Translations under genes and position numbers: made by a program
Source of the DNA: Pseudomonadota bacterium
Lineage (GTDB): Bacteria > Pseudomonadota > Gammaproteobacteria > Burkholderiales > Burkholderiaceae_C
DNA: 64,000 nt
Direction: 5' to 3'
Assembly: GCA_029779845.1 (NCBI GenBank)
Contig: JAKOZT010000064.1
Location: 334 to 64,333, forward strand
Notes under the pieces: generated by a model
Databases searched by the model: none
Told to the model about the DNA's origin: nothing
Seen by the model: the letters and a program-made list of their open reading frames with translations, nothing else
In this document: positions 26,992 through 57,854 of the stretch, piece after piece
Layout: every line of letters starts with the position of its first letter
How positions within the stretch are numbered: position 1 is the stretch's first letter

Positions 26992-27267
26992 TCAGCGCAT
27001 TGCCAGGTGCGTGGCGACGATGATCGGCAGCACCACCATCAGCCAGCCGAGCACGAAGCGGCGCCACACCGCCGGCGCGCCGCGCAGTTCCATGAACTCC
27101 AGCGCGATCGCCAGGCCCTTGCCGAAGGCGAGGCCGAACACGGCGAAGATCGCCCAGGCCGGCGCCGCGCCGGCGCGCGCCTCGCCGATCCACCACGACA
27201 GCGCGGTGGCGGCGAGCATGGCCCACCACAGCCTGTCGATCCTGCGGCGCAGCTTGTCGTCGTTCAT
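26992..27267 (-). CDS. cytochrome c oxidase subunit IV family small membrane protein (NorF-like), 91 aa
   Basis: ATG at 27267-27265 (MNDDKLRRRIDRLWWAMLAATALSWWIGE) overlaps the upstream stop as ATGA. Three hydrophobic segments. Paired with a subunit III family gene. Confidence 0.6.
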   Translation of the reverse strand: MNDDKLRRRIDRLWWAMLAATALSWWIGEARAGAAPAWAIFAVFGLAFGKGLAIALEFMELRGAPAVWRRFVLGWLMVVLPIIVATHLAMR

Positions 27268-27881
27268 CGCAGCACGTAGACCAGGGGGAAGAGAACGACC
27301 CACAGCAGGTCGACCATGTGCCAGAACACCGCCGCCGTCTCCGGCACGTGCGTTCGATCGCCGCCGCCCGCCCAGCCGCGCCGCGGCGCCAGCCAGGCCA
27401 CGCCGGCGAGGAACAGCACGGCCGCGGCGACATGCAGGAAGTGAAAGCCGGTGAGCAGGTAGTACAGCGTCCAGAAGGTGTCGCTGTCGAGGTCGTGGCC
27501 GGCGGCCATCTTGGCGCGGTACTCCAGGCTCTTGGCGACGAGGAAGCACACGCCCAGCGCCGCCGCGCCCCACAGCCAGCGCACGCCTGCTTGCATCCGG
27601 TCGCGCCGCAGCGCCAGCACGCCGCGCACCGCCGCCCAGCTACCGGTCAGCAGCAGCGCGGTGTTGGCCGCGCCCAGGTGCAGGTCGAGCGTCGCCTGCC
27701 CGGCCTGGAACAGCGCCGGCTCGCGCAGCCGCGCCACCGAGAAGACGATGAACATCAGGCCGAAGGTCAGCATCTCGATGCCGACGATGAACCAGATCGC
27801 CAGGTCGCCGGCCAGGCGCGGCTCGGGCAGCGCGGCGGGTCGTTGCAGCGGCAGCGCCGCGGAGGAAGTCATGGCCGCCAT
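27264..27881 (-). CDS. cytochrome c oxidase subunit III family protein (NorE-like), 205 aa
   Basis: Distal part of track ORF 27264..28457. Start MAAMTSSAALPLQ at 27881, or 27872. Typical CoxIII-family helices (FWTLYYLLTGFHFLHVAAAVLFL, AAVFWHMVDLLWVVLFPLVYV). Confidence 0.75.
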   Translation of the reverse strand: MAAMTSSAALPLQRPAALPEPRLAGDLAIWFIVGIEMLTFGLMFIVFSVARLREPALFQAGQATLDLHLGAANTALLLTGSWAAVRGVLALRRDRMQAGVRWLWGAAALGVCFLVAKSLEYRAKMAAGHDLDSDTFWTLYYLLTGFHFLHVAAAVLFLAGVAWLAPRRGWAGGGDRTHVPETAAVFWHMVDLLWVVLFPLVYVLR

Positions 27882-27937
27882 GCTCGGCACATGCCGGCAG
27901 CATGGAATTGACGCAGGGCAAATCCGCGGCCTGGGCC

Positions 27938-28411
27938 CTAGCCTGCCGCCAGCCACGCCTTGATCTGCCGCTGCACGGCCGGCTCCGACAGCCCCGTGCG
28001 CGGGTCGCACAGCACCAGCTCGGGCGGGGGCGGGTCGCCGAAGGCGACCGGCGAATCGTCGAGGATGATGTAGCTCGTCACCGTCGGGTGGCGCGCCAGC
28101 CAGGCCTGGATGCAGGCGTAGCGCTCGCCCTTGGGCGTGCAGCCGAGGTAGCGGTTGCCCAGGCTGCCGAGCAGGTCGCCGATCTCCTCGGGCGTGTGGT
28201 TGAAGCGCCAGTTGGAATGCACCACCACGTACACGTCGTCGTGGCCGGCCAGCAGGCCGGGCAGGATGTCGAACCAGCAGAAGGCGTCGAACCGCACGCG
28301 GGCCAGCGCCGAACCGCGGTGCGCGGCGCGCGCTTCGTCGTCGGTGGCGCAGGGGTGCGTGACGCCGCCGAAGTCGAGGAAGATGACGCGCATGTCCTGA
28401 TGATCCGCCAT
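27938..28411 (-). CDS. HAD-like domain protein with degenerate motif I, 157 aa
   Basis: Complete track ORF starting at ATG 28411 (MADHQDMRVIFLDFGGVTHP). LDFGGV sits where HAD motif I DxDG(T/V) is expected. Normal composition. Confidence 0.5.
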   Translation of the reverse strand: MADHQDMRVIFLDFGGVTHPCATDDEARAAHRGSALARVRFDAFCWFDILPGLLAGHDDVYVVVHSNWRFNHTPEEIGDLLGSLGNRYLGCTPKGERYACIQAWLARHPTVTSYIILDDSPVAFGDPPPPELVLCDPRTGLSEPAVQRQIKAWLAAG

Positions 28412-28797: not shown

Positions 28798-29631
28798 TCA
28801 GAGATCGCAGCAGTCGAACAGCCCGCTGCCCAGGTCGTGGCGCGAGCCGCGCACGCAATACCCGGCGGGCGCCGCTGGCGTCTTGACGGGCTTCACCGCC
28901 CCCGCCGCGCCGCCGCGCGCGCCCGCGCCGAAGCTCACCTCCGGCACCGGCAGGTCGACCGCCTTGCACAGCCCGGCCACGTCCAGCAGCACCAGCTGGC
29001 GCCCGCTGCCGCCCAGCAGCCCCTCGCGGCGGAACGCGCTCAGCAGGCGCGACAGCGTCACCGGCGTCACGTTCAGCTGCTTGGCCAGCACGTTGCCGTT
29101 GACCGGCAGCGCCAGCCAGTTGCTGCCCTGCTGCATGTGCAGGCTCACCAGGTAGCCCACCAGCCGCTGGCCGGATTTGCCGGTGGTCAGCAGGTCGATG
29201 CGGTTGACCGACTGGTGCACCCGGTTCGAGATCGAGGTCAGGAAGGCGAACGCCAGCTCGGGCACCGTGTGCGAGAGCTCGCGCAGCCGCTGCCCCGACA
29301 GGCGCCACACCACGCTGGCCGTCTGCGCGCGCGCCGACACGGGGTAGCGCCCCGGCTCGGCGAACATCACCGTCTCGGCGATCACGTGGGTGGACTGCAT
29401 CACGCGGAACACCTTCTCGTCGCCGTCGTAGGCCGGGCGGTACAGCACGATGCCGCCCGACTCCACCACGTAGAAGTGCTGCGCCTCGTCCTCCATCTCG
29501 AAGAGGTGCTCGCGCGCGCCCAGCTTGAGACGCAGCGCGTCTTGCGTCAATTGCTCCAGCTCGGCCGGCGCGAGGCTGCGGAACGCGGGCGCCTGCGCCA
29601 ACGCCTGCTGCAGGAACTGCTTGTTGGCCAT
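28798..29631 (-). CDS. Crp/Fnr family transcriptional regulator with ~45-aa Cys-containing C-terminal extension
   Basis: ATG at 29631-29629 (MANKQFLQQALAQAPAFRSL). cNMP-binding-like N-terminal domain. HTH is NVLAKQLNVTPVTLSRLLSAFRREGLL. Tail is ..PAGYCVRGSRHDLGSGLFDCCDL. Confidence 0.8.
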   Translation of the reverse strand: MANKQFLQQALAQAPAFRSLAPAELEQLTQDALRLKLGAREHLFEMEDEAQHFYVVESGGIVLYRPAYDGDEKVFRVMQSTHVIAETVMFAEPGRYPVSARAQTASVVWRLSGQRLRELSHTVPELAFAFLTSISNRVHQSVNRIDLLTTGKSGQRLVGYLVSLHMQQGSNWLALPVNGNVLAKQLNVTPVTLSRLLSAFRREGLLGGSGRQLVLLDVAGLCKAVDLPVPEVSFGAGARGGAAGAVKPVKTPAAPAGYCVRGSRHDLGSGLFDCCDL

Positions 29632-29686
29632 CTCAACCCCCCTCGAAGCGCCGCACCGGGAAGGTGCCGTTGCACGCACAATAGAT

Positions 29687-29705
29687 GAGATTGATTCTCA
29701 TTTCA
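29687..29705. promoter_or_regulatory. Fur-box-like site
   Basis: The reverse complement TGAAATGAGAATCAATCTC matches the Fur consensus GATAATGATAATCATTATC at 13/19 by hand alignment. It shares the core AAATGAGAATCAWTCT with the site at 34789-34807. It lies 56-74 nt upstream of the Crp/Fnr-family start. Confidence 0.5.
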
Positions 29706-29791
29706 ACTTCTTAAAGCCCTGTACTCGAAGGGTATCCGGCGCTCGAACCCCGGGGCGCTCGCCCATCTTCCCAGCCCCGGCGCACGGAACG

Positions 29792-29809
29792 CTTAACAAA
29801 TGATGTTGG
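29792..29809 (+). promoter_or_regulatory. conserved AT-rich 18-mer CTTAACAAATGATGTTGG (copy 1)
   Basis: 17/18 identical to 34745-34762. Contains the inverted half-sites AACA-N5-TGTT. Lies 190 nt upstream of the 29999 gene. Confidence 0.4.
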
Positions 29810-30658: not shown

Positions 30659-32740
30659 ATGAATAAAACCTGCCCTTCGCCCCGCTCCCGCCTGTACGTC
30701 GCGGTGGCGCTGTTCGCTTTGTCCGCTGCGCAGGTCGCGCAAGCCGCACCCACCGGCCAGTACTTCGGTCGCTACCAGATCACGATGAACAGCCCGGTCA
30801 ACGCGCTGTCGCCGGCGCCGTGGCGGGTCAAGGGCACCGACACCACCTACATGGTGCTGGGCTGGAGCGAGCAGCCATCCTTCTGGTTGTGGGACTTCGA
30901 CAAGAAGACCATTTCCGTCTCGGGCGGCACGCTATGGGCACTCAATTCGATGCCGCCTCCCTATGCGCTGTACAGCCCGACGCACGTGCGCGACCCCAAC
31001 CAGAAGCTGCGCTCCAACAGCCTCACGCCCTCGGACCTGACGGGCGAGTTGATCGCCAATGCCGACGGCACCTACACCGTGCGCTTCGCCTACGGGATTT
31101 ACCTGCAACTTGCGGGTTGGCCGCAAACGCTCATCGAAGCCAAGGTACGGGTGGAAGAGCAGGCCGACGGCACGCTGAAGATCACCACGCTCGACGAAGC
31201 GCCGGACAGCGTAGTGATTCCACAAGACTTCTTCCCGGATGGTGGCTACAACGCCGCGGGCAGCCAGGACGTGAGCTTGTATGTGGCCTCCGGCGGCTCA
31301 CGCAAGGACGGCATCCCGGGCGTCATCAAGCCCAGCACAGCGGAAGACAAGGCGAACGGTGCATTCCCCTTCCGCGTCTCGCCGCAGTGGGACAGCGAGC
31401 GTATGGTGAAGATCGACGCGACCAAGGACAGCAACAAGGACGCCATCCCCGACGCGGTGGCGCTGGCGCTGGGCCTGAACCCCTACGTGGCCGACACCGA
31501 CGGCGACGGCATTTCCGACAAAGACGAGATCGGCCCGAACTGGCAGGAGCCCGTCGACACGGATCAGGACGGCATTCCCGACGTGCTGGAGCCCGGCGAC
31601 GCGGCCAAGAACTTCAGAGTCGTCGGCAACGCCATGCTGGCCAACAACGAACGGGTGACGGTGCAGGTGCTGGACGGGGAGCGCTTCGGTACCAAGGACT
31701 TCCCCACCGGAGTGATGACCAAGCCGCTGGAGCCGCGCTGGAAGAACATCGCTGAACTGCTGGTGGCCTTCCTGTTCGGCGAGAAGAGCCCGCTGCCCGA
31801 GAAGGATGCCGATGGCGTGGCCTACAACTACGACCTCGGCCGCCTGACCTACCACATCTCCGAGGCCTACACGCCCTACGCCACGTACACCGTAACGCGC
31901 ACTTCCTTTTCACAAGTCCTGGCCACGCAGAACTCCCTCGCGGTGTACAGGAACGCCGTGACTCAGGCCCAAGCGACTTACGACGCCGATCCGACGGACG
32001 CCAACAAGGCTGACCTGGACCTCAAGAAGAAACAGGTGGCCGATACGGAAGCCTTGCTGGCCAAGGCCATCCGACTCAGTGCGCGGGTCCGCGACGTCTA
32101 CCGCCAGCGCATCATCGACCACCTCGGCATCGAGTTCCTCAGCGTCACGACGTATGCCGAATTCATGGCGCTGATCACGAGCAAAGGCATCGACCCCGAG
32201 AAACTGCGCAAGAACGCCGACGTTCGCATCACCTTCCACAACGGCATTCCGAAGGGCTTGAAGCTGTTCTGGACCACCGAGTTCGGTGCGCTCGCTCCGC
32301 TGCCCGCCGACATCGTTCCCTCTCGGAAGGTCGGCCGCGCCGGGAGCGGCTGGAGCGGTGTGCAAGCCAACAACGTTCCATTCGAAGTGCTGGAGGATGG
32401 CAAGACCATCAAACTGGGGTTCCGGGATAACGGCTACGCTGTGACGCCCAGTTTCGTCTACGGTAGCAGTGGCACCCTGGACGCCACCAGCAGTGAGGAA
32501 GACTTCCTGAACGCATCGGGATTCGTCTCCCACCGCATCGTCCTCGCCCACACCGAAACCGCCCGCCCCGCATTGGTCTTCACCGACCCCAACCCGCCCG
32601 CCACCAACGACGGCGGCAGCGACGGCGGTGGCGGTGGCGCGCTCGATGGCTACTCGCTCGCCGCCGGCCTGCTGGCGCTGCTCGGCCTGGGCCTGCCGCG
32701 TCTGCGGCAGCGCTTCGCACGCGCCCGCCGCGTGCAGTAG
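30659..32740 (+). CDS. secreted protein with thrombospondin type-3-like Ca-binding repeats and GlyGly-CTERM-like sorting tail, 693 aa
   Basis: Complete track ORF. Signal peptide LYVAVALFALSAAQVAQA. Repeats DTDGDGISDKDE and DTDQDGIPD. C-terminus is GGSDGGGGGALDGYSLAAGLLALLGLGLPRLRQRFARARR (Gly run, hydrophobic helix, basic cluster). Paralogous to 37079..38416. Confidence 0.8.
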   Translation: MNKTCPSPRSRLYVAVALFALSAAQVAQAAPTGQYFGRYQITMNSPVNALSPAPWRVKGTDTTYMVLGWSEQPSFWLWDFDKKTISVSGGTLWALNSMPPPYALYSPTHVRDPNQKLRSNSLTPSDLTGELIANADGTYTVRFAYGIYLQLAGWPQTLIEAKVRVEEQADGTLKITTLDEAPDSVVIPQDFFPDGGYNAAGSQDVSLYVASGGSRKDGIPGVIKPSTAEDKANGAFPFRVSPQWDSERMVKIDATKDSNKDAIPDAVALALGLNPYVADTDGDGISDKDEIGPNWQEPVDTDQDGIPDVLEPGDAAKNFRVVGNAMLANNERVTVQVLDGERFGTKDFPTGVMTKPLEPRWKNIAELLVAFLFGEKSPLPEKDADGVAYNYDLGRLTYHISEAYTPYATYTVTRTSFSQVLATQNSLAVYRNAVTQAQATYDADPTDANKADLDLKKKQVADTEALLAKAIRLSARVRDVYRQRIIDHLGIEFLSVTTYAEFMALITSKGIDPEKLRKNADVRITFHNGIPKGLKLFWTTEFGALAPLPADIVPSRKVGRAGSGWSGVQANNVPFEVLEDGKTIKLGFRDNGYAVTPSFVYGSSGTLDATSSEEDFLNASGFVSHRIVLAHTETARPALVFTDPNPPATNDGGSDGGGGGALDGYSLAAGLLALLGLGLPRLRQRFARARRVQ

Positions 32741-32777
32741 GCGGCCCACCCGCGCGGCGGCTCGCGCGCCCATCGCC

Positions 32778-33149
32778 ATGAGCCCCGCCGCGCGGCGCCG
32801 CTCCACCGGCTTCACGCTGGTGGAGGTGCTGGTGGCGCTGAGCATGGTGGCCGTCGCGCTGATGGCCGGCTTCAAGGCCAGCCAGGCGGCGGTGACGGGG
32901 GTGGAGCGGCAGTCGCAGCTGCTGCTCGCGCAGCTGTGCGTCGAGAACGAGCTGGCGCGCCTGCGCCTGGCCGCGCAGCTGCCCGGCGTCGGCATCAGCG
33001 AGGCGGCCTGCGAGCAGGGCGGCCGCGCTTTCGTGCTGCGCACGCAGGCGATGCCCACGCCCAACCGCCAGTTCCGCCGCGTCACCGCGCAGGCGCTCGA
33101 CGGCGATGCCCACGTGGTGCTGGGCGTCACCACCGTGGTGGGGCGCTGA
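32778..33149 (+). CDS. gspI: type II secretion minor pseudopilin GspI-like, 123 aa
   Basis: Prepilin-type N-terminus MSPAARRRSTGFTLVEVLVALSMVAVALMAG. Size and position ahead of J/K-like genes fit GspI. Confidence 0.7.
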   Translation: MSPAARRRSTGFTLVEVLVALSMVAVALMAGFKASQAAVTGVERQSQLLLAQLCVENELARLRLAAQLPGVGISEAACEQGGRAFVLRTQAMPTPNRQFRRVTAQALDGDAHVVLGVTTVVGR

Positions 33150-33151
33150 GC

Positions 33152-33811
33152 ATGCCAGCCCGCGCGCGCCGCGCCGGCCTCACCCTGGTGGAGGTACTGG
33201 TGGCGCTGTTCGTGATGAGCCTGATGACCGCGCTGAGCTGGCGCTCGGTCGACGCGATGCTGCGCGGCTGGGCCGCCGGCCGCCTGATGGGCGACGAGCT
33301 GCGCGCCGTGCAGGCCGGCCTGGGCCAGTGGGAGGCCGACATGGATGCGCTGGTGGAAACCGGCGTCGTCAGCGCGCTGGAGTTCGACGGCCTGGCGCTG
33401 CGCATGACGCGCGCCAACCGCCCCCGCCCCGGCGAGGGCCGCCTGGTGGTGGCCTGGGCGCTGCGTCCGGGCGCCGACGGCGCGCCGCGCTGGACGCGCT
33501 GGCAGTCGCCGCCGCTGCACACGCGCGCGCAGCTGCAGCAGGCCTGGCAGCAGGCCGCGCTGTGGGCCCAGGGGCATGGTGGCGCGGCGGCCGGCGCGAC
33601 GCCGGTGGCCCTGGCCGGCGCCTGGAGCGTGCTGTACTTTCGCGGCGGCGCGTGGAGCAACGCCTTGTCGTCGGCCGACCGGGGGCCGGTCACCGTGGTG
33701 CCGCTGCCCGACGCGGTGCAGCTCACGCTCGACCTCGCCCCCGGCCACGCCGTCGGCGGGCGGCTGGTGAAGGTGTGGGTGCGGCCGGACTTCGCGGGGA
33801 GGGCGGCATGA
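33152..33811 (+). CDS. gspJ: type II secretion minor pseudopilin GspJ-like, 219 aa
   Basis: MPARARRAGLTLVEVLVALFVMSLMTALSW prepilin-type N-terminus. The gene starts 2 nt after the gspI-like stop. Confidence 0.65.
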   Translation: MPARARRAGLTLVEVLVALFVMSLMTALSWRSVDAMLRGWAAGRLMGDELRAVQAGLGQWEADMDALVETGVVSALEFDGLALRMTRANRPRPGEGRLVVAWALRPGADGAPRWTRWQSPPLHTRAQLQQAWQQAALWAQGHGGAAAGATPVALAGAWSVLYFRGGAWSNALSSADRGPVTVVPLPDAVQLTLDLAPGHAVGGRLVKVWVRPDFAGRAA

Positions 33812-34749
33812 AGAAAGGCCAGCAGGGGGCGGCGATTCTTCTGGCGATGCTGGTGGTGGCGCTGGTGTCCACGCTGGCCGCATCGGCGGTGTGGCGCCAG
33901 CAGCTCGACGTGGAGGTGGAGACGGCCGAGCGCGGCCGCATGCAGGCGCGCTGGGTGCTCACCGGCGCGCTCGACTGGGCGCGCACGCTGCTGCGCGAGG
34001 ACGGGCGCACCAGCACGGTCGACCACCTGGGCGAGCCCTGGGCCGTGCCCTTGCAGGAGGCCCGGCTGTCGGCCTTCCTGGCCGCCGATGCGGCTGACGA
34101 AGCGGGCATGCCGATGGCCTTTCTGTCCGGCCGGCTGCTGGACATGCAGGCACGCCTGAACGTGAACGACCTCGCCAACGGCGGCGCGCCGGTGCCCGAG
34201 GTGGTGGCGATGTTCGAGCGGCTGTTCGACCGCCTCGGGCTGCCGCGCGCCGAGCTGGCCGCGCTGGCGGCCGCGGTGGCGCGCGCCGATGCCGGCGAGC
34301 GGGCCGGCGCTGATGCGCCGCTGCCGCTGTGGCAATTGGCCGATCTGCTCGACCTGGGCGTCGGCGAGGCCACGCTGCAGCGCCTGGCGCCCTACGTGGC
34401 GGTGCTGCCGCTGCGCAGCCCGGTGAACCTGAACACCGCGCCGCCGGAGGTGCTGTACGCGAGCCTGCCGGGCCTCGAATGGGCGGACGCGCTGCGCCTC
34501 GCGCTGCAGCGCGAGCGCAAGCCCTTCGGCTCGATCCGCGACGCCGCCGCCGCGCTGTCGTCGCCGCAAGCCGCGGCGCTGTCGCCGATGCTGCACGGCA
34601 CCTCCACGCGCTACTTCGAGGCCACGCTGCGCCTGCGCCTCGATGCCCTGGAACTCGAGGAGCGCGCGGTGCTGTTCCGCAACGGCCTGAACGTGCGCCC
34701 GCTGTGGCGGCGGGCCGGCCCGGCTGCGGCCGGGCAGCCCGACTCTTAA
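33808..34749 (+). CDS. gspK: type II secretion minor pseudopilin GspK-like, 313 aa
   Basis: The ATG overlaps the upstream stop (ATGA at 33808-33811). MKKGQQGAAILLAMLVVALVSTLAASAVW and the motifs LGEPWA, VNLNTAPPEVL are typical of GspK. Confidence 0.7.
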   Translation: MKKGQQGAAILLAMLVVALVSTLAASAVWRQQLDVEVETAERGRMQARWVLTGALDWARTLLREDGRTSTVDHLGEPWAVPLQEARLSAFLAADAADEAGMPMAFLSGRLLDMQARLNVNDLANGGAPVPEVVAMFERLFDRLGLPRAELAALAAAVARADAGERAGADAPLPLWQLADLLDLGVGEATLQRLAPYVAVLPLRSPVNLNTAPPEVLYASLPGLEWADALRLALQRERKPFGSIRDAAAALSSPQAAALSPMLHGTSTRYFEATLRLRLDALELEERAVLFRNGLNVRPLWRRAGPAAAGQPDS

Positions 34750-34762
34750 CAATTGATGTTGG
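34745..34762 (+). promoter_or_regulatory. conserved AT-rich 18-mer CTTAACAATTGATGTTGG (copy 2)
   Basis: 17/18 identical to 29792-29809. Overlaps the gspK-like TAA stop. Lies 27 nt upstream of the Fur box and 104 nt upstream of the TonB-receptor ATG. Confidence 0.4.
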
Positions 34763-34788
34763 TGCCGCAGCAGCTTCGGGGCAAAATA

Positions 34789-34807
34789 GCAAATGAGAAT
34801 CATTCTT
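34789..34807 (+). promoter_or_regulatory. Fur box
   Basis: GCAAATGAGAATCATTCTT matches GATAATGATAATCATTATC at 14/19 by hand alignment. Lies 59 nt upstream of the TonB-dependent receptor start. Confidence 0.65.
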
Positions 34808-34865
34808 GTCTGATCGTGCGATCGATGGTGATCGGCGCGCCCAGCTCGCTCACGCTCTGCCGCCG

Positions 34866-37061
34866 ATGCACCAAGATCCCGCCCGCCTGCCGGCCGTCAC
34901 CGGCCCCCTCTTCGCCATCGCCCTGACCGTCCTGTGCTGCGCAGCCGACGCCCGCGCCGACGAGCCGGCCAAGGAGTCGACGCTGCCACCCGTGACGGTG
35001 CGCGCCGCGCCGCTCAGCCCCGCGCAGGCGCAGGCGCAAGAGGCGCGCGAGACGCTCGACAAGGTGCCCGGCGGCACCAACCTGATCGACCTCGACGAGT
35101 TCCAGGGCAGCCAGGCCTCGGTGGCGCGCGTGCTCGAGTTCGAGCCGGGCATCGTGATCCAGGAGTTCTTCGGCGGCAACGACCAGCCGCGCGTCAACGT
35201 GCGCGGCTCCGGCATCCAGGACAACCCCGTCAGCCGCGGCATCCAGCTGCTGTACGACGGCCTGCCGCTGAACCAGGCCGACGGCAGCTTCATCATCGGC
35301 CTGCTCGACCCCGAGCTGGCGCGCCAGGTGTCGGTCTACCGCGGCGCCAACGCGCTGCGCTTCGGCGCGACGACGCTGGGCGGCGCGATCGACTTCGGCC
35401 TGCGCAACGCGCGCAACAGCCCGGCCTCGCAGGCCACGCTGGAGGCCGGCTCCTACGGGCTGCGCAAGGGCAGCGCCGCGCTGGCCGGCGCCGGCGAGGC
35501 CTGGGACCTGCTGCTGCGCGTGGCCGACAGCCGCGCCGACGGCTGGCGCGCGCACAGCGAGGCGCAGCGCAGCAGCCTGGCGCTGAACGCCGGGCTGCGC
35601 GACGGCGCGCTGGAGAACCGCACGCTGCTGCTGTACACGCGCAACCGCTTCGACGCGCCCTTCCTGCTGACCAAGCACCGCGCGCTGACCGACCCGCGCT
35701 CGGTGATGGGCGACTACGTCGGCCTGCCGCCCGACGAGGGCGGGCTGTTCGAGCAGTTCCTCAACGTGCGCGTGCGCGACCCGCACCGCGACACCGAGCA
35801 GCTGCGCCTGTCGAGCCGCACCACGCTGTTCGGCGAGGCGGCCACGCACGTGCTGGGGGTCTATGCCGAGCGCGTCGACGACACCTTCCGCAACCCGGCC
35901 ACCGAGGTGCGCACCGCGGCTACCAATGCCGGGCTGGACTACGCCGTCGACGGCGCGCCGCGGCTGTGGGGCGAACGCGCCACCGAGCTGCAAGGCTTCG
36001 TCTCGGCCAACGCCGGGCGCATGCCGCGCGAGCACCACCTGGTGAGCCCGATGGACGGCTCGCTGGCGGGCAATTTCGCGAAGGTGGGCCAGCGCGCCGC
36101 CAACCTGGTGATCGGCGGCCAGGCGCTTCAGCCGCTGGCGCCGGGCTGGCAGGCGCTGGCGGCGGCGCAGTGGGTGCGCAACGTGCGCGACATCGACGAC
36201 CGGCAGCGCCCCGGGCTGCTCGACAGCCGCATGCGCTACTCGGCCTTCAACCCCAAGCTGGGCCTGATCTTCAAGCCGGGCGAGAACGAGCGCTGGTTCG
36301 CCAACCTCAGCCGCAGCTCGGAGGCGCCGACCTTCTGGCAGCTCGCCGACCTGGGCGCCGGCTCCAACCCGGGCAGCCCGAACACGCTGTACCTCCAGGC
36401 GCACCCGCTGAAGCTGCAGACGGCCACCACCTTCGAGATCGGCACGCAGCAGCGCTCGCCGCGGCTGGGCTGGGAGGCGGCGTACTACCTCTCGCGCGTG
36501 CGCGACGAGCTGATCGCCGAGGTGCAGAACTACGCCATCGACGGCACCACGGTGAACTACGACCACCCGACGCGCCACCAGGGCGTGGAGCTGGCCTTCA
36601 ACGCCGCCACCGCGCCGGGCGTGCTGATGCGCGCCGACCGCTTCACGCTGCGCGGCATCTACAACTGGAGCGACTTCCGCTTCCGCGGCGGGCGCTACGC
36701 CGGCAAGCGCATCGCCGGCGTGCCGCAGCACCTGCTGTTTGCCGAGGGCGGCTGGTGGCCGCTGCCGGGGCTGTTCGTGGGCCTGAACGCGCGCTGGCAG
36801 CCGAAAGACACGCCGGTGGACCACGCCAACGCCGGGCTGGTGCAGGACGCCTACCTGCTGCTGGGCGCCAAGCTGAGCTGGCGGCCGAACCCGAAGGCGG
36901 AGTTCTTCCTCGACCTGCACAACCTCGCCGACCGCAAGTACCAGACCGCCTACGTGGTGCGCGGCTACTCGCCGGACAACTCGGCCTCGCCGCTGAACAT
37001 GCCCACCTTCATCCCCGGCCCGGGGCGCAGCGGCTCGGCCGGCGTCACGCTGCGCTGGTGA
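34866..37061 (+). CDS. TonB-dependent outer-membrane receptor, 731 aa
   Basis: Track ORF 34806..37061; I prefer ATG 34866 (MHQDPARLPAVTGPLFAIALTVLCCAADARA signal peptide). TonB-box-like TLPPVTVRA. Plug motifs (GGTNLIDL, RVNVRGSGIQ) and a beta-barrel C-terminus ending ..GVTLRW. Confidence 0.85.
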   Translation: MHQDPARLPAVTGPLFAIALTVLCCAADARADEPAKESTLPPVTVRAAPLSPAQAQAQEARETLDKVPGGTNLIDLDEFQGSQASVARVLEFEPGIVIQEFFGGNDQPRVNVRGSGIQDNPVSRGIQLLYDGLPLNQADGSFIIGLLDPELARQVSVYRGANALRFGATTLGGAIDFGLRNARNSPASQATLEAGSYGLRKGSAALAGAGEAWDLLLRVADSRADGWRAHSEAQRSSLALNAGLRDGALENRTLLLYTRNRFDAPFLLTKHRALTDPRSVMGDYVGLPPDEGGLFEQFLNVRVRDPHRDTEQLRLSSRTTLFGEAATHVLGVYAERVDDTFRNPATEVRTAATNAGLDYAVDGAPRLWGERATELQGFVSANAGRMPREHHLVSPMDGSLAGNFAKVGQRAANLVIGGQALQPLAPGWQALAAAQWVRNVRDIDDRQRPGLLDSRMRYSAFNPKLGLIFKPGENERWFANLSRSSEAPTFWQLADLGAGSNPGSPNTLYLQAHPLKLQTATTFEIGTQQRSPRLGWEAAYYLSRVRDELIAEVQNYAIDGTTVNYDHPTRHQGVELAFNAATAPGVLMRADRFTLRGIYNWSDFRFRGGRYAGKRIAGVPQHLLFAEGGWWPLPGLFVGLNARWQPKDTPVDHANAGLVQDAYLLLGAKLSWRPNPKAEFFLDLHNLADRKYQTAYVVRGYSPDNSASPLNMPTFIPGPGRSGSAGVTLRW

Positions 37062-37078
37062 GCGCGGAGGCACGCACG

Positions 37079-38416
37079 ATGACCGCACGACTGATCGCCG
37101 CCGCACTGGCTATTCTTCTCGCCGCCCTGGCCGGCCCCGCGCGGGCGCAGCAGGGCACGCCCGGGCTGACCGGCATCTACCACGGCGAGCACCGCATCAC
37201 GATGCGCGGCTGCCCCGGCGCGTGCAGCGCCGCCACCGCGCTGGTGCTGGGCACCGGCGTGAAGGACGCCGCCTGGACCTTCAACTTCGACCAGGGCTGG
37301 GCCGAGATCGCCGGCACCACGTTGACGGTGGGCTTCGTCTACGAGGTGCAGGACCTGGGCAACCTCGACCCGAGCGGCAACCGCGTCTACTTCAGCGACC
37401 TCGGCGACGGCACCTACCGGCTGCGGCACGGCTTCCAGATCTACAACCCGAACGTCGGCAACCCGCGCGCCGACACCTTCACGCTGCTGCGCATCACGCG
37501 CAGCGGCAACGCGCTGGCGATCGAGACGCTGGACGGCGACGCGCCGCCCGACGGCATCCCCGGCACGCAGATCGTCAACGTGTTCCCGATGACGGTGCAG
37601 CCGGATTTCGCGGGCTGGGCGCGGCTGGAGGGCAGCGACAGCAGCGGCGGCGGCATCAGCGACGCCGACAAGCTGCGCCTGCACCTGAACCCGACGGTTC
37701 TGGACACCGACGGCGACGGCCTGGCGGACACCGACGAGCTGGGCCCCGACCTGAACGCCCCGCTGGACAGCGACGGCGACGGCGTGATCGACGCGCTCGA
37801 GCCCGGCGCCGCGGCGCACGATGCGCGCCTGGCCGCCGGCGTGCCGCTGCTCGACGGCGTGCCGGGCTACGCGAAGACGGCCGACGCGCTGGCCGGCGCC
37901 ACGGTGGCGCTGCAGCTGGCCGACGCGGCGCAGCGCTTCACCGCGGTGCGCACCGGCACGCTGGTGCTGGAGGCCGACGGCAGCGCGATTCCCGACGTGT
38001 CGCTGGGCGACGCGGGGCTGGACTACCGGCACGGCTACGTGGAGTTCGCCGTGGCGGGCAGCGGCGCGGTGAGCGTGCGGCTGACCTACTCGGCCGCGCT
38101 GCCGCAGCGCCTGCTGGTGTACGGCCTGCGGCAGGTGGCGGCCGACAGGCAGCGCTACACGCTGCTGGACGCCGGCGCGTGGAAGCGGGTGGACGAGCAC
38201 ACGCTGGAAGTGACCGTGGCCGACGGCGGGGCTAACGATCTGGATGAGCGTGAAGGCTACGTGCGCGCCGGCGTGGCGCCGGTGGAGAACACGCTGGGCG
38301 GCCACGACGTGGAGTCGGGCAACGGCGGCGGCGCGCTGGACGGCGCGCCGCTGGCGCTGCTGGCGCTGGCGGCGCTCGCGCTGCGGCGCCGCAAGGCGAA
38401 GGAGGGCGGGCGATGA
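37079..38416 (+). CDS. secreted protein with TSP3-like Ca-binding repeats and GlyGly-CTERM-like tail, 445 aa (paralog of 30659..32740)
   Basis: GGAGG at 37066-37070, then ATG at 37079. Signal peptide AAALAILLAALAGPARA. Repeats DTDGDGLADTDE and DSDGDGVIDALEPG. Also DGGANDLDEREGYVRAGVAPV. Tail is GNGGGALDGAPLALLALAALALRRRKAK. Confidence 0.8.
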   Translation: MTARLIAAALAILLAALAGPARAQQGTPGLTGIYHGEHRITMRGCPGACSAATALVLGTGVKDAAWTFNFDQGWAEIAGTTLTVGFVYEVQDLGNLDPSGNRVYFSDLGDGTYRLRHGFQIYNPNVGNPRADTFTLLRITRSGNALAIETLDGDAPPDGIPGTQIVNVFPMTVQPDFAGWARLEGSDSSGGGISDADKLRLHLNPTVLDTDGDGLADTDELGPDLNAPLDSDGDGVIDALEPGAAAHDARLAAGVPLLDGVPGYAKTADALAGATVALQLADAAQRFTAVRTGTLVLEADGSAIPDVSLGDAGLDYRHGYVEFAVAGSGAVSVRLTYSAALPQRLLVYGLRQVAADRQRYTLLDAGAWKRVDEHTLEVTVADGGANDLDEREGYVRAGVAPVENTLGGHDVESGNGGGALDGAPLALLALAALALRRRKAKEGGR

Positions 38417-39423
38417 AGCGGCGCCCTCTCGTGCTGGGCCTGGGCGCCGCGCTGGCGCTGCCGGCCGCGGCGCAGCCCGCGCCGGCGGCCTCCGCGCCGC
38501 GCCGCGCGCGGCTGGTGCTGGCCGGACCGTATGCCACGGTGTCGTTCCCGCTCATCCACATGGCCGAGAGCGGTGCGCTGGCCGGCTTTGCCGAGCAGGT
38601 GGTGTTCACCGGCTGGCGCACGCCCGACCAGCTGCGCGCGCTGGCGGTGGACGGCGGCGCGGCCTTCGTCGCCGCGCCCACCAACGTGGCGGCCAACCTC
38701 TACAACCGCGGCGTGGCGCTGCAGCTGCTCAACGTCAGCGTGTGGGGCATGCTGTCGCTGGTGTCGCGCTCGGCGGCGATGAAGACGCTGGCCGACTTCA
38801 AGGGCCAGGAGATCGCGGTGCCGTTCCGCGCCGACATGCCCGACATCGTGCTGCAGCTGCTGGCGCAGGCGCAGGGGCTGGACGCGCAGCGGGACTTCAG
38901 GCTGCGCTACGTGCCCACGCCGATGGACGCGGTGCAGCTGCTGATCCACCGCCGCGTCGACCACGCGCTGCTGGCCGAGCCGATGACCTCGATGGCGCTG
39001 CGGCGCACGCGCTCGTTCCCGGTGTCGGTGATCGCGCCGGAGCTGTTCCGCAGCGTCGACCTGCAGCAGGAGTGGGGGCGCGTGTTCGAGCGCGCGCCGC
39101 GCATCCCGCAGGCGGGCATCGCCGCGCTCGGCGCGGTGCGCGACGACGCGGCGCTGCTGTCGGCGTTTCGCGCCGCCTACCGCGCCTCGGCGCAGTGGTG
39201 CGTGCAGCAGCCGGCCGAGTGCGGCGCGCTGGTGGCGCGCCACGTCGAGATGCTCGATGCCGCGGCGGTGGCCGACGCGCTGCGCCAAGCGCCCTTGCAG
39301 GAGGTGCCGGCCGCCGAGACGCGCGCCGAGCTGGCCTTCTTCTTCGGCCTGCTGCACGAGCGCCAGAGCGCGCTGGTGGGCGGACGCCTGCCCGACGCGG
39401 CGTTCTACGGGCTGCTCGACTGA
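38413..39423 (+). CDS. ABC transporter periplasmic substrate-binding protein (NitT/TauT, NMT1-like family)
   Basis: The ATG overlaps the upstream stop (ATGA). Signal peptide MKRRPLVLGLGAALALPAAAQ. Followed directly by a cognate permease and ATPase. Confidence 0.65.
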   Translation: MKRRPLVLGLGAALALPAAAQPAPAASAPRRARLVLAGPYATVSFPLIHMAESGALAGFAEQVVFTGWRTPDQLRALAVDGGAAFVAAPTNVAANLYNRGVALQLLNVSVWGMLSLVSRSAAMKTLADFKGQEIAVPFRADMPDIVLQLLAQAQGLDAQRDFRLRYVPTPMDAVQLLIHRRVDHALLAEPMTSMALRRTRSFPVSVIAPELFRSVDLQQEWGRVFERAPRIPQAGIAALGAVRDDAALLSAFRAAYRASAQWCVQQPAECGALVARHVEMLDAAAVADALRQAPLQEVPAAETRAELAFFFGLLHERQSALVGGRLPDAAFYGLLD

Positions 39424-39429
39424 ACCGCT

Positions 39430-40254
39430 GTGATGCCGCGCCTCGCACGCGCAGTCCGCTGCCTGGGTGCGGCGTTGGGCGCGTGGCTGGCCGCCGCGGC
39501 CGCGTACCTGTGGAGCGGCTGGGGCGCGGTGGCCAGCCTGCTGCTGTTCATGGCCGCGTGGGAGGCCGGCGCGCTGCTGGCGGGCCCGCTGGTGCTGCCC
39601 GGCCCGCTGGCCACGCTGGAGACGCTGCGCGGCCTGTTCGATGCCGGCCAGGCCGCGCCGCAGATGCTGATCTCGGCGCGCCGCACGCTCGCCGGGCTGG
39701 GGCTGGCGGTGGGTGCCGGCACGGCGCTCGGCGTGGCCGCCGGGCTGTCGATGACCGGCGCGATGCTGGCGCGGCCGTGGATGACGCTGCTGATGGGCAT
39801 GCCGCCGATCGCCTGGCTGGTGCTGGCGATGCTGTGGTTCGGCATGGGCGATGCGACGCCGGTGTTCACGGTGTTCGTGGCCTGCTTTCCGATCGTCTTC
39901 GCCGGCGCCTTGCAGGGCACGCGCACGCTCGACGACGGCTTGCGCGAGGTGGCGCGCGCCTACCGCCTGCCGCGCCGCATGCTGCTGCTGGACGTGCTGC
40001 TGCCGCACGTGGCCTCGTACCTGTTCCCGGCCTGGGTGACGGCGCTGGGCAGCTCGTGGAAGGTGGTGGTGATGGCCGAGCTGCTGGCCGCCAACGACGG
40101 CGTCGGCGCCGCGCTGGCGGTATCGCGCGCGCAGCTCGACACGGCGGCGTCGCTGGGCTGGATCGCCGCGGTGCTGGCGCTGCTGCTGGGCGCCGAGTAC
40201 CTGCTGCTGGAGCCGGTCAAGCGCCGCGTCGAGCGCTGGCGGAGCGCGGCGTGA
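39430..40254 (+). CDS. ABC transporter permease (NitT/TauT family)
   Basis: Complete track ORF (GTG at 39430 or ATG at 39433). Multi-TM, with an EAA-like loop (..ARAYRLPRRMLLLDVLLPHV..). Confidence 0.75.
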   Translation: MMPRLARAVRCLGAALGAWLAAAAAYLWSGWGAVASLLLFMAAWEAGALLAGPLVLPGPLATLETLRGLFDAGQAAPQMLISARRTLAGLGLAVGAGTALGVAAGLSMTGAMLARPWMTLLMGMPPIAWLVLAMLWFGMGDATPVFTVFVACFPIVFAGALQGTRTLDDGLREVARAYRLPRRMLLLDVLLPHVASYLFPAWVTALGSSWKVVVMAELLAANDGVGAALAVSRAQLDTAASLGWIAAVLALLLGAEYLLLEPVKRRVERWRSAA

Positions 40255-41102
40255 TGAACACGCTGCGCATCGAAAATCTGTCGCACCGCTTCGGCGTCAC
40301 CGAGGTGCTGCACGGCATCACGCTGGAACTCGCCGCCGGCGAGACGCTGGCGCTGGTGGGGCCGTCGGGCTGCGGCAAGAGCACGCTGCTGCGCATCGCC
40401 GCCGGGCTGCTGGTGCCGGCCGAGGGCGAGGTGCACAACCCGTTTCGCGGCAGTGCCTGCGTGTTCCAGCAGCCGCGCCTGATGCCGTGGAAGACCGCGC
40501 TGGACAACGTCGCGCTGGGCCTGAAGGCGCTCGGCCTGCCGCGTGCGGCGCGGCGCCGGCAGGCGCATGCGCTGGCCTTGCAGCTCGGCCTGCAGGAAGA
40601 CGATCTGCGCAAGTACCCGCACGAGCTGTCGGGCGGCATGCAGAGCCGCGTGTCGCTGGCGCGCGCGCTCGTGCTGGCGCCCGACCTGCTGCTGCTCGAC
40701 GAGCCTTTCGCCTCGCTCGACGTCGGGCTGAAGCAGGCGCTCTACGCCGTGCTGCGCGCGCAGGTGGCCGCGCGCGGCTGCGCGATGCTGATGATCACGC
40801 ACGACCTGATTGAAGCGGTGCGGCTGGCCGACCGTATCTGCCTGATGGCCGGCACGCCCGGCCAGATGGTGCACCAGTACCGGCTGCGCCAGCCCTTCGA
40901 GGCGCGCGACGAGGACTGGGTGCACGCCACCACCGGCCGGCTGGTGCAGCGGCCCGAGGTGCGCGCGGCCTTCGGTCTGCCGGCGCTGGCGATGGCCGAA
41001 GCGGCACCGGCGGAAACCGCAGTGCAGGAGGCGTTCGCCGCACCGCCACTGCCGCCGCATCCCGCGCATCCTGGCGGCTGCGGGGATCTGTTCCGGCCAT
41101 GA
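40254..41102 (+). CDS. ABC transporter ATP-binding protein
   Basis: ATG at 40254 overlaps the permease stop (TGATG). Walker A GPSGCGKST, signature LSGGMQSRV, Walker B LLLLDEP. Confidence 0.9.
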   Translation: MNTLRIENLSHRFGVTEVLHGITLELAAGETLALVGPSGCGKSTLLRIAAGLLVPAEGEVHNPFRGSACVFQQPRLMPWKTALDNVALGLKALGLPRAARRRQAHALALQLGLQEDDLRKYPHELSGGMQSRVSLARALVLAPDLLLLDEPFASLDVGLKQALYAVLRAQVAARGCAMLMITHDLIEAVRLADRICLMAGTPGQMVHQYRLRQPFEARDEDWVHATTGRLVQRPEVRAAFGLPALAMAEAAPAETAVQEAFAAPPLPPHPAHPGGCGDLFRP

Positions 41103-42361
41103 GCAGCTTCGCCCGCGCCCGGGAACGCCTGCAGGCCCTGCCGCTGTTCATGTGCGGCTTCCGGCCGTTCTTCCTGCTTGCGGCTGCCGCCGCGGTGGCC
41201 GGCATGGTGCTGCTGCTGGGCGCCTGGAGCGGCCTGCTGCCGGTGCCGGCGGCGCTGCCCGGCGGTCTGGTGACGTGGCACGCGCACGAATTGATCTACG
41301 GCTTCGGCATGGCCGGCGTGACCGGTTTCCTGCTGACCGCCGTGCCCGAGTTCACCGGCAGCGCCCCATTCACGCCGCGCGTGACGCTCACGCTGGTGGC
41401 GCTGTGGCTGGCCGCGCGCCTGAGCTGGCTGGCGGCATCGCTGCTGCCGGCGCTGTTGCTGCCCTTCAACCTGGCGCTGGACGGTGCGCTGCTCGCACTG
41501 GTGGCGCCGCGCCTGTGGCGCGACCCGCTGCGCCGGCATCTGGGCTTCGCCGTCGCGCTGGCGCTGCTGACGCTGCTGCACGCCGGCTTCTTCGCCGCAC
41601 TGCTGGGCGGCGGCCGGCCGCTGGCCTGGCTGCACGCCGCGGTGGGTGCGATGGCCTGCCTCGTCATCGTGGCCACCAGCCGCATCTCGATGAGCGTGGT
41701 CAACGGCCTGATGGAGGCTGGCCGCCCGGGCGCGCCGCCGCCGCAGGCGGTGTACCTGGCGCGCCCGCCGCGGCGCCATCTGGCGGTGCTGGCGATCGCG
41801 CTGTGCGGCCTGTCCGAGTTCGCCGGCGGCCCGGTGCAGGTGACCGGCTGGCTGGCGCTGGCCGCGGCGGCGGCGATGCTGCACCTGCTCAACGACTGGC
41901 ACATCGGCCGCGCGCTCTTCACGCGCTGGGCGCTGATGCTGTACGGCAGCTACTGGCTGATCGCGCTGGGCTATGCCGCGCTCGGCGCCGCCTGGCTGGA
42001 CGCGCCGCTGCAGGCCTCGGCCGGCTGGCACTTGCTGACCGCCGGCGCGATGGGGCTGTCGATGTTCGCGGTGATGAGCATGGCCGGGCGCATCCACGCC
42101 GGGCTGTGGCTGGATCGGCGGCGCTGGCTGCCCGCCGCCGCCGCGGCGATCGTGCTGGCCGCACTGCTGCGCGCGGCCGCCGGCCTGAGCGGCGCGCCGC
42201 AATGGCCGCTGCTGGCCGTCGCCGGCCTGCTGTGGGCGGGCGCCTTCGCGGCCTACCTGTGGCACGCCGCGCCAGTGCTGCTGGCCGCGCGCAGCGACGG
42301 CCAGGGCGGCTGCGCCGAGCCGGCGATGGAGGACGAACACGCGCATCGCGGCTGTGCGTGA
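41099..42361 (+). CDS. nnrS: NnrS family heme/copper membrane protein
   Basis: ATGA overlap with the ABC ATPase stop. N-terminus LPLFMCGFRPFFLLAAAAA..WHAHELIYGF..GFLLTAVPEFTG is characteristic of NnrS. About 12 TM segments. Confidence 0.85.
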   Translation: MSSFARARERLQALPLFMCGFRPFFLLAAAAAVAGMVLLLGAWSGLLPVPAALPGGLVTWHAHELIYGFGMAGVTGFLLTAVPEFTGSAPFTPRVTLTLVALWLAARLSWLAASLLPALLLPFNLALDGALLALVAPRLWRDPLRRHLGFAVALALLTLLHAGFFAALLGGGRPLAWLHAAVGAMACLVIVATSRISMSVVNGLMEAGRPGAPPPQAVYLARPPRRHLAVLAIALCGLSEFAGGPVQVTGWLALAAAAAMLHLLNDWHIGRALFTRWALMLYGSYWLIALGYAALGAAWLDAPLQASAGWHLLTAGAMGLSMFAVMSMAGRIHAGLWLDRRRWLPAAAAAIVLAALLRAAAGLSGAPQWPLLAVAGLLWAGAFAAYLWHAAPVLLAARSDGQGGCAEPAMEDEHAHRGCA

Positions 42362-42420
42362 GCGTTACGCGTCGTCCATTTTGAGACTACACTATGTCTC
42401 GAAATGGACGGAGTAGCGAA

Positions 42421-51692: not shown

Positions 51693-51694
51693 CC

Positions 51695-53624: not shown

Positions 53625-53674
53625 GCCACATCGTGTTGCAAGGGCAGGCGCGAAGCACGCTAGGCTGAGAGGCT

Positions 53675-54361: not shown

Positions 54362-54377
54362 AGTAGGCTTGCGCGCG

Positions 54378-57754: not shown

Positions 57755-57854
57755 CCCACCGAAGGACGAATGCCTGTGAATGGGAGCTTGGCGGGCGTAA
57801 CGTCCGTTCACCGTGCACGCGAGGGCGTCGCGGCCCTGACCAGGAGGAATCACC

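Follow-up and report, generated by a model that had tools for sequence, protein, structure and literature searches.

A rare TonB-dependent receptor cassette encoding three paralogous, probably secreted proteins, two of them with GlyGly-CTERM-like tails, in a Burkholderiales bacterium

The lipoproteins TbpB, LbpB and HpuA and the hemophores HasA and hemophilin are surface or secreted partners of TonB-dependent receptors. The GlyGly-CTERM proteins of Vibrio cholerae, such as VesB, are processed by rhombosortase (RssP/RrtA) and put on the cell surface by a type II secretion system (T2SS) (PMC6219818, PMC13393428, PMC3237569). Here, we describe a locus with similarities to both, located in a 64,000-nt stretch of contig JAKOZT010000064.1 from a Burkholderiales bacterium (hereafter, the window). 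Two paralogous proteins of 693 and 445 amino acids (aa), referred to as the large and medium paralogs, carry sorting-type C-terminal tails and are encoded in one cassette with a tail-less small paralog of 185 aa and a TonB-dependent receptor (Table 1). The best explanation, in which we place moderate confidence, is a TonB-dependent uptake cassette under Fur control, with accessory proteins that rhombosortase and the T2SS sort to the surface.

Like TbpB, LbpB, HpuA, HasA and hemophilin, the window proteins are all-beta, probably respond to iron, and have genes next to that of a dedicated TonB-dependent receptor. The cassette appears to contain tethered (445-aa and 693-aa) as well as free (185-aa) forms. 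Unlike TbpB, LbpB and HpuA, the window proteins have no lipobox, and anchoring would be C-terminal, via rhombosortase; unlike TbpB- or HasA-type partners, they would be exported by the T2SS rather than by Slam/type XI (T11SS) or type I (T1SS) secretion, and they have no significant fold similarity to these partners.

With VesB and other V. cholerae GlyGly-CTERM proteins, the window proteins have in common a signal-peptide-like N-terminus, an unstructured Gly/Ser-rich linker, a Gly motif, a transmembrane (TM) helix and a basic cluster (PMC6219818, PMC13393428, PMC3237569). The likeness extends to the orthologs of the window proteins, which pass the GlyGly-CTERM model TIGR03501 and are linked to rhombosortase (TIGR03902) genes, and to the presence of T2SS genes in the window operon. 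However, the Vibrio passengers are proteases and nucleases, whereas those of the window combine TSP3-like loops with a novel beta domain; the window motif is GGGALDG, under the model cutoff, and not GG(G)S-x-(G)W; and the genes lie in a receptor/importer cassette behind Fur-like boxes. As in bacterial TSP3-repeat proteins (PF18884; e.g., OmpA-TSP3), DxDxDGxxDxxE calcium-loop motifs are present, but there are only two or three loops, the Pfam cutoff is missed, and the rest of the proteins differs. In the literature searched, we found no link of rhombosortase to TonB-dependent uptake.

Three paralogs in a conserved receptor cassette

The ORFs of the 693-aa and 445-aa proteins were found at the positions given in the initial annotation, and their paralogy, proposed there, was confirmed by BLASTP (E=7e-20, 28% identity, ~282 residues). 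The similarity is not confined to generic calcium loops, since the two N-domains still matched when the DxDxDG segment was left out (E=6e-10), and the N-domain of the 693-aa protein matched the profile of the family N-domain (hhalign, probability 98.2%, E=5e-14). All the shared motifs initially listed were found, although the first one actually reads Y-x-G-x-x-x-ITM (YFGRYQITM and YHGEHRITM) and the second one W-x-(W/F)-x-FD. The 185-aa protein also matched the N-domain profile (probability 98.2%, E=3e-14, 155 columns), as well as a 187-aa protein from another locus (L024; BLASTP E=9e-16), and, judged by these alignments, is a third paralog, which the initial annotation had overlooked together with the receptor, Fur and gspIJK context. 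The three paralogs have in common a previously unnamed all-beta N-terminal domain of ~150 aa. On inspection, the N-termini of the 693-aa and 445-aa proteins resembled signal peptides (…AQVAQA/AP and …GPARA/QQ). The start of the 445-aa protein, which sits within a longer open frame, agrees with the database gene call (P0001).

Outside the common domain, the paralogs differ. Members of the medium family exhibited two invariant N-domain motifs, GCPGxC and HGFQI(Y/F)NPNVGNPR (the latter being HGFQIYNPNVGNPR in the 445-aa protein), which were not found in the small or large paralog types and which suggest a functional site. The NCBIfam choice-of-anchor U domain (NF041766) was identified in the 445-aa protein (34.3 bits, cutoff 32) and was not detected in the 693-aa protein. 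The TSP3 label given to the calcium loops held at the level of motif and homology: the loop segment is clearly homologous to TSP3-repeat proteins at the motif level, with a 60-residue segment matching thousands of them, and it was 40-50% identical to PF18884-positive proteins. The label did not hold for the Pfam model itself, since TSP3_bac (PF18884) scored 17.0 bits on the 693-aa protein, below the gathering score of 25, and gave no match on the 445-aa protein, for which only weak EF-hand matches were obtained.

In an exhaustive profile search of 1.84 billion representative proteins (representatives at 50% identity), 68 proteins were found below E=1e-30, most of them matching the loop segment alone. 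True family members, which covered most of the profile, accounted for about 25-30 of these; the families are thus very small. Orthologs of the 693-aa protein included P0021 (44% identity), P0022 (35%), and a protein of L012 (32%, full length).

AlphaFold models were obtained with a pLDDT of 74.7 for the 445-aa protein and 67.4 for the 693-aa protein. In each, the all-beta N-domain was accompanied by a compact loop module and a beta-sandwich, with a helix at the terminus (residues 423-441 and 665-692 in the 445-aa and 693-aa proteins, respectively); in the 693-aa model, a confident helical hairpin (406-480) was inserted in the C-terminal region after the loop module. When both models were compared with the PDB using Foldseek, no neighbor was found with E below 0.01, the best matches having E=0.01-0.06 and a probability of at most 0.54. 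The matches to TbpB (E=0.014) and LbpB (N-lobe, probability 0.54; TbpB/LbpB matches spanned probabilities of 0.3-0.5), as well as those to PagP, lipocalin-like and nanobody-like structures, were rejected as not significant. A profile search of PDB sequences yielded only weak matches to filamin repeats, through a DNGDGTY motif.

The core of the cassette comprised a Crp-family regulator, a TonB-dependent receptor, and small (164-196 aa, N-domain only), medium, and large (491-738 aa) paralogs. These members co-occurred, in the same or a permuted order, in the loci L001-L014 and L017-L024, representing about 12 lineages, with hosts belonging to the Gamma-, Beta- and Alphaproteobacteria and the Chrysiogenota. 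The cassette was found in only 9 of 185,579 species representatives. Overall, it is rare, horizontally spread, and present in several unrelated bacteria. The receptor gene was located directly upstream of the medium paralog gene in every locus long enough to show it, and was the best-conserved gene of the cassette (48-67% identity in all related loci); the regulator was 37-50% identical to that of every related cassette. The receptor of the window probably starts at position 34866, as an identical contig (L015) calls a protein of 731 aa. Its nearest solved relatives were YncD/PqqU, with an E-value of only ~1e-15.

Two variants of the cassette were observed. In the first one (Alloalcanivorax, Marinobacter, Thalassolituus, and L001), a 146-aa protein with four TM helices is encoded before the receptor. 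In the second one, found in the window, Pollutimonas, and L005, an ATP-binding cassette (ABC) importer with an NMT1-type binding protein is accompanied by an NnrS-family protein, which is missing in Desulfurispirillum; the importer was also present in metagenome-assembled genomes (MAGs) of Hyphomicrobiales (L011) and Colwellia (L012). The same three importer genes follow the medium paralog gene in L003, L005, L006, L011/L018, and L012, and NnrS occupies the same position in L005, L006, and L018. In the window, the stop codon of the 445-aa gene overlaps the start of the binding-protein gene (ATGA, 38413-38416). In L005 (7070-9343), the medium paralog and the binding protein are called as a single 757-aa protein (P0007), which is either a real fusion or a gene-calling artefact.

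The position between the large paralog and receptor genes is taken by the 146-aa gene in Alloalcanivorax (L002) and by gspIJK in the window. The genes encoding the 146-aa protein were located at 1932-2375 in L001, 7350-7790 in L002, 7404-7844 in L004, and 7416-7847 in L014, in cassettes without an ABC importer. With four predicted TM helices and conserved His residues, this protein was 65-80% identical across genera, i.e., more than the receptor; it had no Pfam, NCBIfam or PDB relative, and it was absent from the window.

Sorting-type tails, rhombosortases and the embedded gspIJK trio

The 693-aa protein ends in GGGGGALDG-YSLAAGLLALLGLGL-PRLRQRFARARRVQ and the 445-aa protein in GGGALDG-APLALLALAALAL-RRRKAKEGGR. 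Both tails are composed of a Gly run, a hydrophobic (TM) helix and a basic cluster, i.e., the tripartite GlyGly-CTERM layout initially described for them, which was also apparent from the modelled terminal helices. No further open reading frame (ORF) ending in a tail of this type was found in the window.

The assignment of these tails to the GlyGly-CTERM class was supported for their orthologs. TIGR03501 (cutoff 15.5 bits) scored 22.1 bits on P0022, 18.8 on P0003, 18.1 on P0021, 15.5 on P0008, and 15.4 on P0006, and many further relatives end in textbook SGGGSxGW-TM-RRR tails, e.g., SSSGGSLGWLALTFLGWLGFRR. Moreover, TIGR03902 rhombosortase genes (cutoff 84 bits) adjoin the cassette regulator gene in Desulfurispirillum indicum (L003; 127.9 bits) and Marinobacter (L004; 127.2 bits). 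A rhomboid-family gene was located by the regulator gene in D. indicum and in three Marinobacter-type loci; the orthologous cassettes with a rhombosortase included those of L003, L004, L013, and L021. Together, the linked rhombosortases and the orthologous tails recognized by the hidden Markov model provide the principal reason to regard the members of the family as rhombosortase substrates. The window itself fell short of this: the 445-aa tail scored 13.4 bits, missing the cutoff, the 693-aa tail gave no match, and no rhombosortase was found in the 64 kb by tblastn with two cassette rhombosortases. The GlyGly-CTERM reading is thus supported for the family, and unproven for the two divergent tails of the window.

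Three observations were made at the loci with linked rhombosortases. In Desulfurispirillum (L003, 18460-20989), a gene for a glycerophosphodiester phosphodiesterase (GDPD) comes after the rhombosortase-regulator pair, which is of note since the VesB anchor contains glycerophosphoethanolamine. In the same locus (5596-7727), the large paralog is split into two genes, encoding a 206-aa protein that corresponds to the N-domain and a 478-aa protein in which the calcium loops and C-terminal region are found, with a textbook GlyGly-CTERM tail, SSSGGTFGWIPLLGLAALALRRR, at its end. In Marinobacter (L004, 5208-6519), the rhombosortase gene is flanked by an FMN-reductase gene.

It is conceivable, if rather unlikely, that in this particular organism the tails are not rhombosortase substrates, and are either uncleaved anchors holding the proteins in the periplasm or signals read by another sorting enzyme. 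Besides the missed TIGR03501 cutoff and the lack of a rhombosortase in the window, this would be consistent with the replacement by ALDG of the Ser and Trp that usually follow the Gly run. It would also be consistent with the presence of the choice-of-anchor U domain in the 445-aa protein, the name of which means that this domain family pairs with more than one kind of anchor. Furthermore, the MYXO-CTERM model (TIGR03901, cutoff 20 bits) scored 22.3 bits on the isolated 445-aa tail. However, this score dropped to 16.1 bits in the full protein, below the cutoff, the 693-aa tail gave no match, neither of the two tails contains a Cys, and the taxon is wrong; MYXO-CTERM was therefore rejected. The MYXO-CTERM signature requires an invariant Cys, at least as outlined in one account (PMC11980579). 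The PEP-CTERM and IPTL-CTERM models gave no match on the window tails at E up to 10, and IPTL-CTERM scored 12.5 bits on one ortholog only, below its cutoff of 20.5. The passing scores of the orthologs and the linkage of rhombosortase genes to the cassette argue against non-rhombosortase tails, as does the precedent of other high-GC Burkholderiales (Leptothrix, Methylibium), which are listed with a GlyGly-CTERM protein and a rhombosortase encoded at a distance (Haft and Varghese, PMC3237569); a distant gene would therefore be unremarkable here.

The GGGALDG sequence common to both tails is encoded by different synonymous codons, and no extended DNA identity was found. Recent gene conversion between the tails was therefore rejected; the different codons fit selection, i.e., adaptation of both tails to one host enzyme, better.

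The gspIJK trio, encoding minor pseudopilins, lies on the same strand as the 693-aa and receptor genes, between the two, with gaps of 38, 2, -4, and 56 nt (the last one measured to the mechanical receptor ORF at 34806). The best GspK relatives were found in Comamonadaceae, with about 50-53% identity; in the relative's locus examined, that of Caenimonas, gspK belongs to a full gspC/GHIJKLMNDE operon. None of the other T2SS genes (gspC/G/H/L/M/N/D/E) was found in the window, and gspIJK was not found in any other cassette locus. In V. cholerae, GlyGly-CTERM proteins are cut by rhombosortase, receive a glycerophosphoethanolamine-containing moiety, and depend on the T2SS for surface display (PMC6219818, PMC13393428); VesB is the only protein for which both cutting behind the Gly motif and attachment of this moiety are known (PMC6219818). 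A functional link of the trio to the 693-aa and 445-aa cargo is plausible, and the trio could form a cargo-linked alternative pseudopilus tip.

Regulatory elements and proposed function

Two Fur-box-like palindromes were identified in the window, one upstream of the regulator gene and one upstream of the receptor gene (Table 1). They correspond to a pair (I10) found by inverted-repeat search, in which 29683-29703 is paired with 34791-34811. When the 19-bp palindrome AATGAGAATCATTCTCATT was searched with up to 3 mismatches, these were the only two sites in the 64 kb, versus 0 in 100 shuffles; based on the known Fur consensus, we take them to be putative Fur sites. A single sigma-70-like promoter match was found in the region, on the strand of the regulator gene (minus strand, 29706..29678), and the first site overlaps it. 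In most of the other loci, the best, and often the only, matches to the Fur consensus (13-17 of 19 positions) were located at the regulator promoter or before the receptor or small-paralog genes. Neighboring genes in other loci encode an extracytoplasmic function (ECF) sigma factor with FecR, and a flavodoxin, which fit an iron-limitation setting.

In addition, an 18-nt motif, CTTAACAAWTGATGTTGG, not clearly palindromic, had two exact matches in the window (0 expected), one upstream of each cassette unit. It was absent from the other loci and thus lineage-specific; we count it in favor of a probable co-regulation of the two units. Perfect FNR-type boxes (TTGAT-N4-ATCAA; TTGATAATTATCAA, TTGATAAATATCAA) were present upstream of cassette genes in L005, L012, and L024, and are probably sites of the cassette's own regulator. 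No FNR- or CRP-type box was found within 2 mismatches in the promoters of the window.

We infer that the cassette is under Fur control, that the divergent GGGALDG tails are cut in this organism, and that the proteins have a surface role in the import of a substrate, which could operate as follows. Iron starvation would lift Fur repression at two promoters, the first serving the regulator gene and possibly also the divergent unit from the 185-aa and 693-aa genes to gspIJK, and the second serving the unit from the receptor gene to NnrS. All three paralogs would be exported by Sec. The GlyGly-CTERM-class tails would hold the medium and large proteins in the inner membrane, from where they would follow the route shown for VesB in Vibrio, possibly assisted by the embedded GspIJK tip proteins. 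On the surface, Ca2+ bound in the TSP3-like loops would stiffen the proteins, which would serve the adjacent receptor, e.g., by capturing its ligand, while the small paralog, having no tail, would represent the free form. A bolder proposal, which we put forward only tentatively, is that the cassette represents an undescribed class of uptake system for iron starvation, in which the receptor partners, being neither N-terminal lipoproteins nor free hemophores, are tethered at their C-terminus via rhombosortase and delivered to the surface by the T2SS, a tail-less paralog serves as soluble form, and, in this genome, an extra, cargo-linked GspI-J-K tip set adapts the secretion machine to such substrates.

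Alongside the shortcomings of the window tails, several observations weigh against a rhombosortase-sorted, iron-responsive uptake cassette. As no significant fold neighbor was found, nothing structural backs a ligand-capture role. The Fur boxes are consensus matches only, and they were weak or unclear in L003, L012, and L024. The binding protein of the importer is of the NitT/TauT (NMT1) type, a class not usual for siderophores, haem or ferric iron, and the nearest solved relative of the receptor, PqqU/YncD, imports a cofactor; both call for caution in assuming a classical siderophore or haem as the substrate. Finally, NnrS, like the nearby COX3-like gene, would instead agree with a setting of nitric oxide or respiration.

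The last point leads to an explanation that we consider improbable, in which the cassette would serve nitric-oxide or low-oxygen physiology and not iron uptake, with a Dnr/NnrR-like regulator controlling NnrS, the importer and the surface proteins during denitrification. The operon ends with NnrS, the regulator is of the Crp/Fnr type without the FNR Cys cluster, a COX3-like gene is located at 27264-27881, and perfect FNR-type boxes precede cassette genes in L005, L012, and L024. However, roughly half of the cassettes lack NnrS (L001, L002, L004, L014), most loci have Fur-like boxes, and no nir, nor or nos gene was found in any locus. The COX3-like gene encodes a subunit III-type membrane protein and lies just beyond the regulator gene together with a HAD_SAK_2 gene (27264-28411).

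Table 1. Features of the cassette and their positions in the window.
Feature	Position (nt)	Strand	Description
Crp/Fnr-family regulator	28798..29631	-	Pfam cNMP_binding and HTH_Crp_2; without N-terminal FNR Cys cluster
Fur-box-like palindrome 1	29684..29702		GATGAGATTGATTCTCATT; 53-71 nt upstream of the regulator start codon
18-nt motif, copy 1	29792..29809	+	CTTAACAAATGATGTTGG; upstream of the 185-aa gene
Small paralog, 185 aa	29999..30556	+	Putative signal peptide and family N-domain only, without sorting tail
Large paralog, 693 aa	30659..32740	+	Approximate residues: putative signal peptide ~1-29; all-beta N-domain ~30-182; low-confidence insert 183-237; TSP3-like calcium loops ~255-315; C-terminal region with helical hairpin 406-480; sorting-type tail 656-693 (nt 32624-32737)
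gspI, minor pseudopilin	32778..33149	+	TIGR01707, 49.5 bits (cutoff 44.35); Pfam T2SSI and N_methyl; 53% identity to Caenimonas GspI
gspJ-like minor pseudopilin	33152..33811	+	N_methyl motif; 40% identity over 221 aa to Caenimonas GspJ; TIGR01711, 23.9 bits, below cutoff (64.85)
gspK, minor pseudopilin	33808..34749	+	NF037980, 228 bits (cutoff 130)
18-nt motif, copy 2	34745..34762	+	CTTAACAATTGATGTTGG; upstream of the receptor unit
Fur-box-like palindrome 2	34792..34810		AATGAGAATCATTCTTGTC; 56-74 nt upstream of the start codon probably used by the receptor gene (34866)
TonB-dependent receptor	34866..37061	+	Pfam Plug and TonB_dep_Rec_b-barrel; mechanical ORF from 34806
Medium paralog, 445 aa	37079..38416	+	Putative signal peptide; N-domain ~28-183; TSP3-like calcium loops ~190-245; beta-sandwich with choice-of-anchor U domain 312-400; sorting-type tail 416-445 (nt 38324-38413)
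ABC importer	38413..41102	+	NMT1/SsuA-type binding protein 38413-39423; permease 39430-40254; ATPase 40254-41102 (Pfam)
NnrS-family membrane protein	41099..42361	+	Last gene of the unit; Pfam NnrS, 263 bits
Terminator-like hairpin	42354-42372		End of the NnrS unit

Elsewhere in the window, a large block of uncharacterized giant genes, mostly on the minus strand (6341-26867), includes a gene for a protein of 3294 aa in which a DUF6603 domain was identified (380 bits). This gene is flanked by ORFs of 1351, 715, 535, 265, and 219 aa, which had no Pfam match and, in NCBIfam, a single match far below cutoff (535-aa ORF, 16.8 bits versus a cutoff of 3000). Directly after the cassette terminator, an Xre/MbcA/ParS-type antitoxin gene (42385-42930) was found in a lower-GC stretch (~66%); it may belong to a toxin-antitoxin module marking an island border. 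Finally, an M16 peptidase, a radical-SAM protein, a tetratricopeptide-repeat (TPR) regulator and a clostripain-family (C11) peptidase are encoded in a cluster (51632-59468) that could be a peptide-modification locus.

Base composition, gene history and significance

The GC content of the window was 72.4%. It was lower in the genes encoding the 185-aa (63.3%) and 693-aa (64.6%) proteins than in those encoding the 445-aa protein (74.1%), the receptor (72.8%) and GspIJK (75-77%). The GC contrast reported in the initial annotation is therefore real, and amounts to about 10 points rather than the 15-20 obtained by hand counting. At third codon positions (GC3), the values were 0.83, 0.86, and 0.96 for the 185-aa, 693-aa, and 445-aa genes, respectively; compared with 13 neighboring genes (mean 0.952, standard deviation 0.022), the first two had z-scores of -5.7 and -4.3. 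A recombination junction at the tail of the 693-aa gene was not upheld, as the low GC3 extended over the whole length of the gene and so short a tail is not informative. No flanking long repeats, as a mobile-element signature, were found around the low-GC block, the only notable inverted pair being the two Fur-like boxes.

In most other loci, the cassette genes were uniform in GC. An exception was L024, which contains the closest homolog of the 693-aa protein (43% identity): its small and large genes had a GC content of 52% (GC3 0.56), versus 69% (GC3 0.87-0.89) for its flanks, including the receptor gene. The occurrence of the same mosaic in two high-GC hosts supports a history of their own for the small and large genes, which are best read as a module of one functional system with, e.g., a later replacement. 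Most simply, it can be assumed that this surface-exposed, fast-evolving module has been exchanged or replaced more often than the core formed by the receptor and the medium paralog. Alternatively, the low GC of the small and large genes may reflect a compositional constraint.

Separate orthologs exist for each of the two tailed paralogs, and in other genomes the two types are found together in one cassette. This argues against a local duplication. The duplication is ancient, and both lineages travel in the same cassette. The proposal of separate acquisition instead of local duplication therefore stood insofar as there was no local duplication and the low-GC module has a different history; it did not stand insofar as the genes are not independent, being parts of one conserved system. 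In its original version, the two proteins would have arrived independently as calcium-binding, secreted GlyGly-CTERM proteins, functionally unconnected to each other or to the intervening genes. The difference in GC3 between their genes, their identity of only 28%, and the situation in L024, where small and large genes of low GC adjoin a receptor gene of high GC, speak for this version, which nevertheless seems very unlikely to us: in about a dozen lineages, the two tailed types are found together with the small paralog, the regulator and the receptor; the gene order of the window (regulator, small, large, the variable slot, receptor, medium) is that of Alloalcanivorax L002; and the two units share their 18-nt motif and their Fur-like box, and the two tails the unusual GGGALDG.

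Equally remote is the idea that the proteins are calcium-dependent adhesins or matrix proteins, their adjacency to the receptor being a by-product of a shared genomic island, as might be suggested by the TSP3-like loops, the beta-sandwich domains, the weak filamin-repeat-like motif and the surface-sorting tail, since the linkage to the receptor is universal, including overlapping or closely spaced genes in distant phyla, and the proteins are short and without the long repeat arrays typical of adhesins.

Work on rhombosortase substrates has so far dealt mainly with hydrolases of Vibrio, Shewanella, and Acinetobacter. If the uptake cassette proposed here is confirmed, it would represent a third way to put a receptor partner on the Gram-negative surface, besides the lipoprotein/Slam routes and the secreted hemophores, and it would give a testable role to the unnamed N-domain family. 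The embedded gspIJK genes would offer a natural test of the part played by minor pseudopilins in cargo choice. Moreover, the recurrence of the GC mosaic suggests more frequent swapping between lineages of the surface-exposed module than of the receptor.

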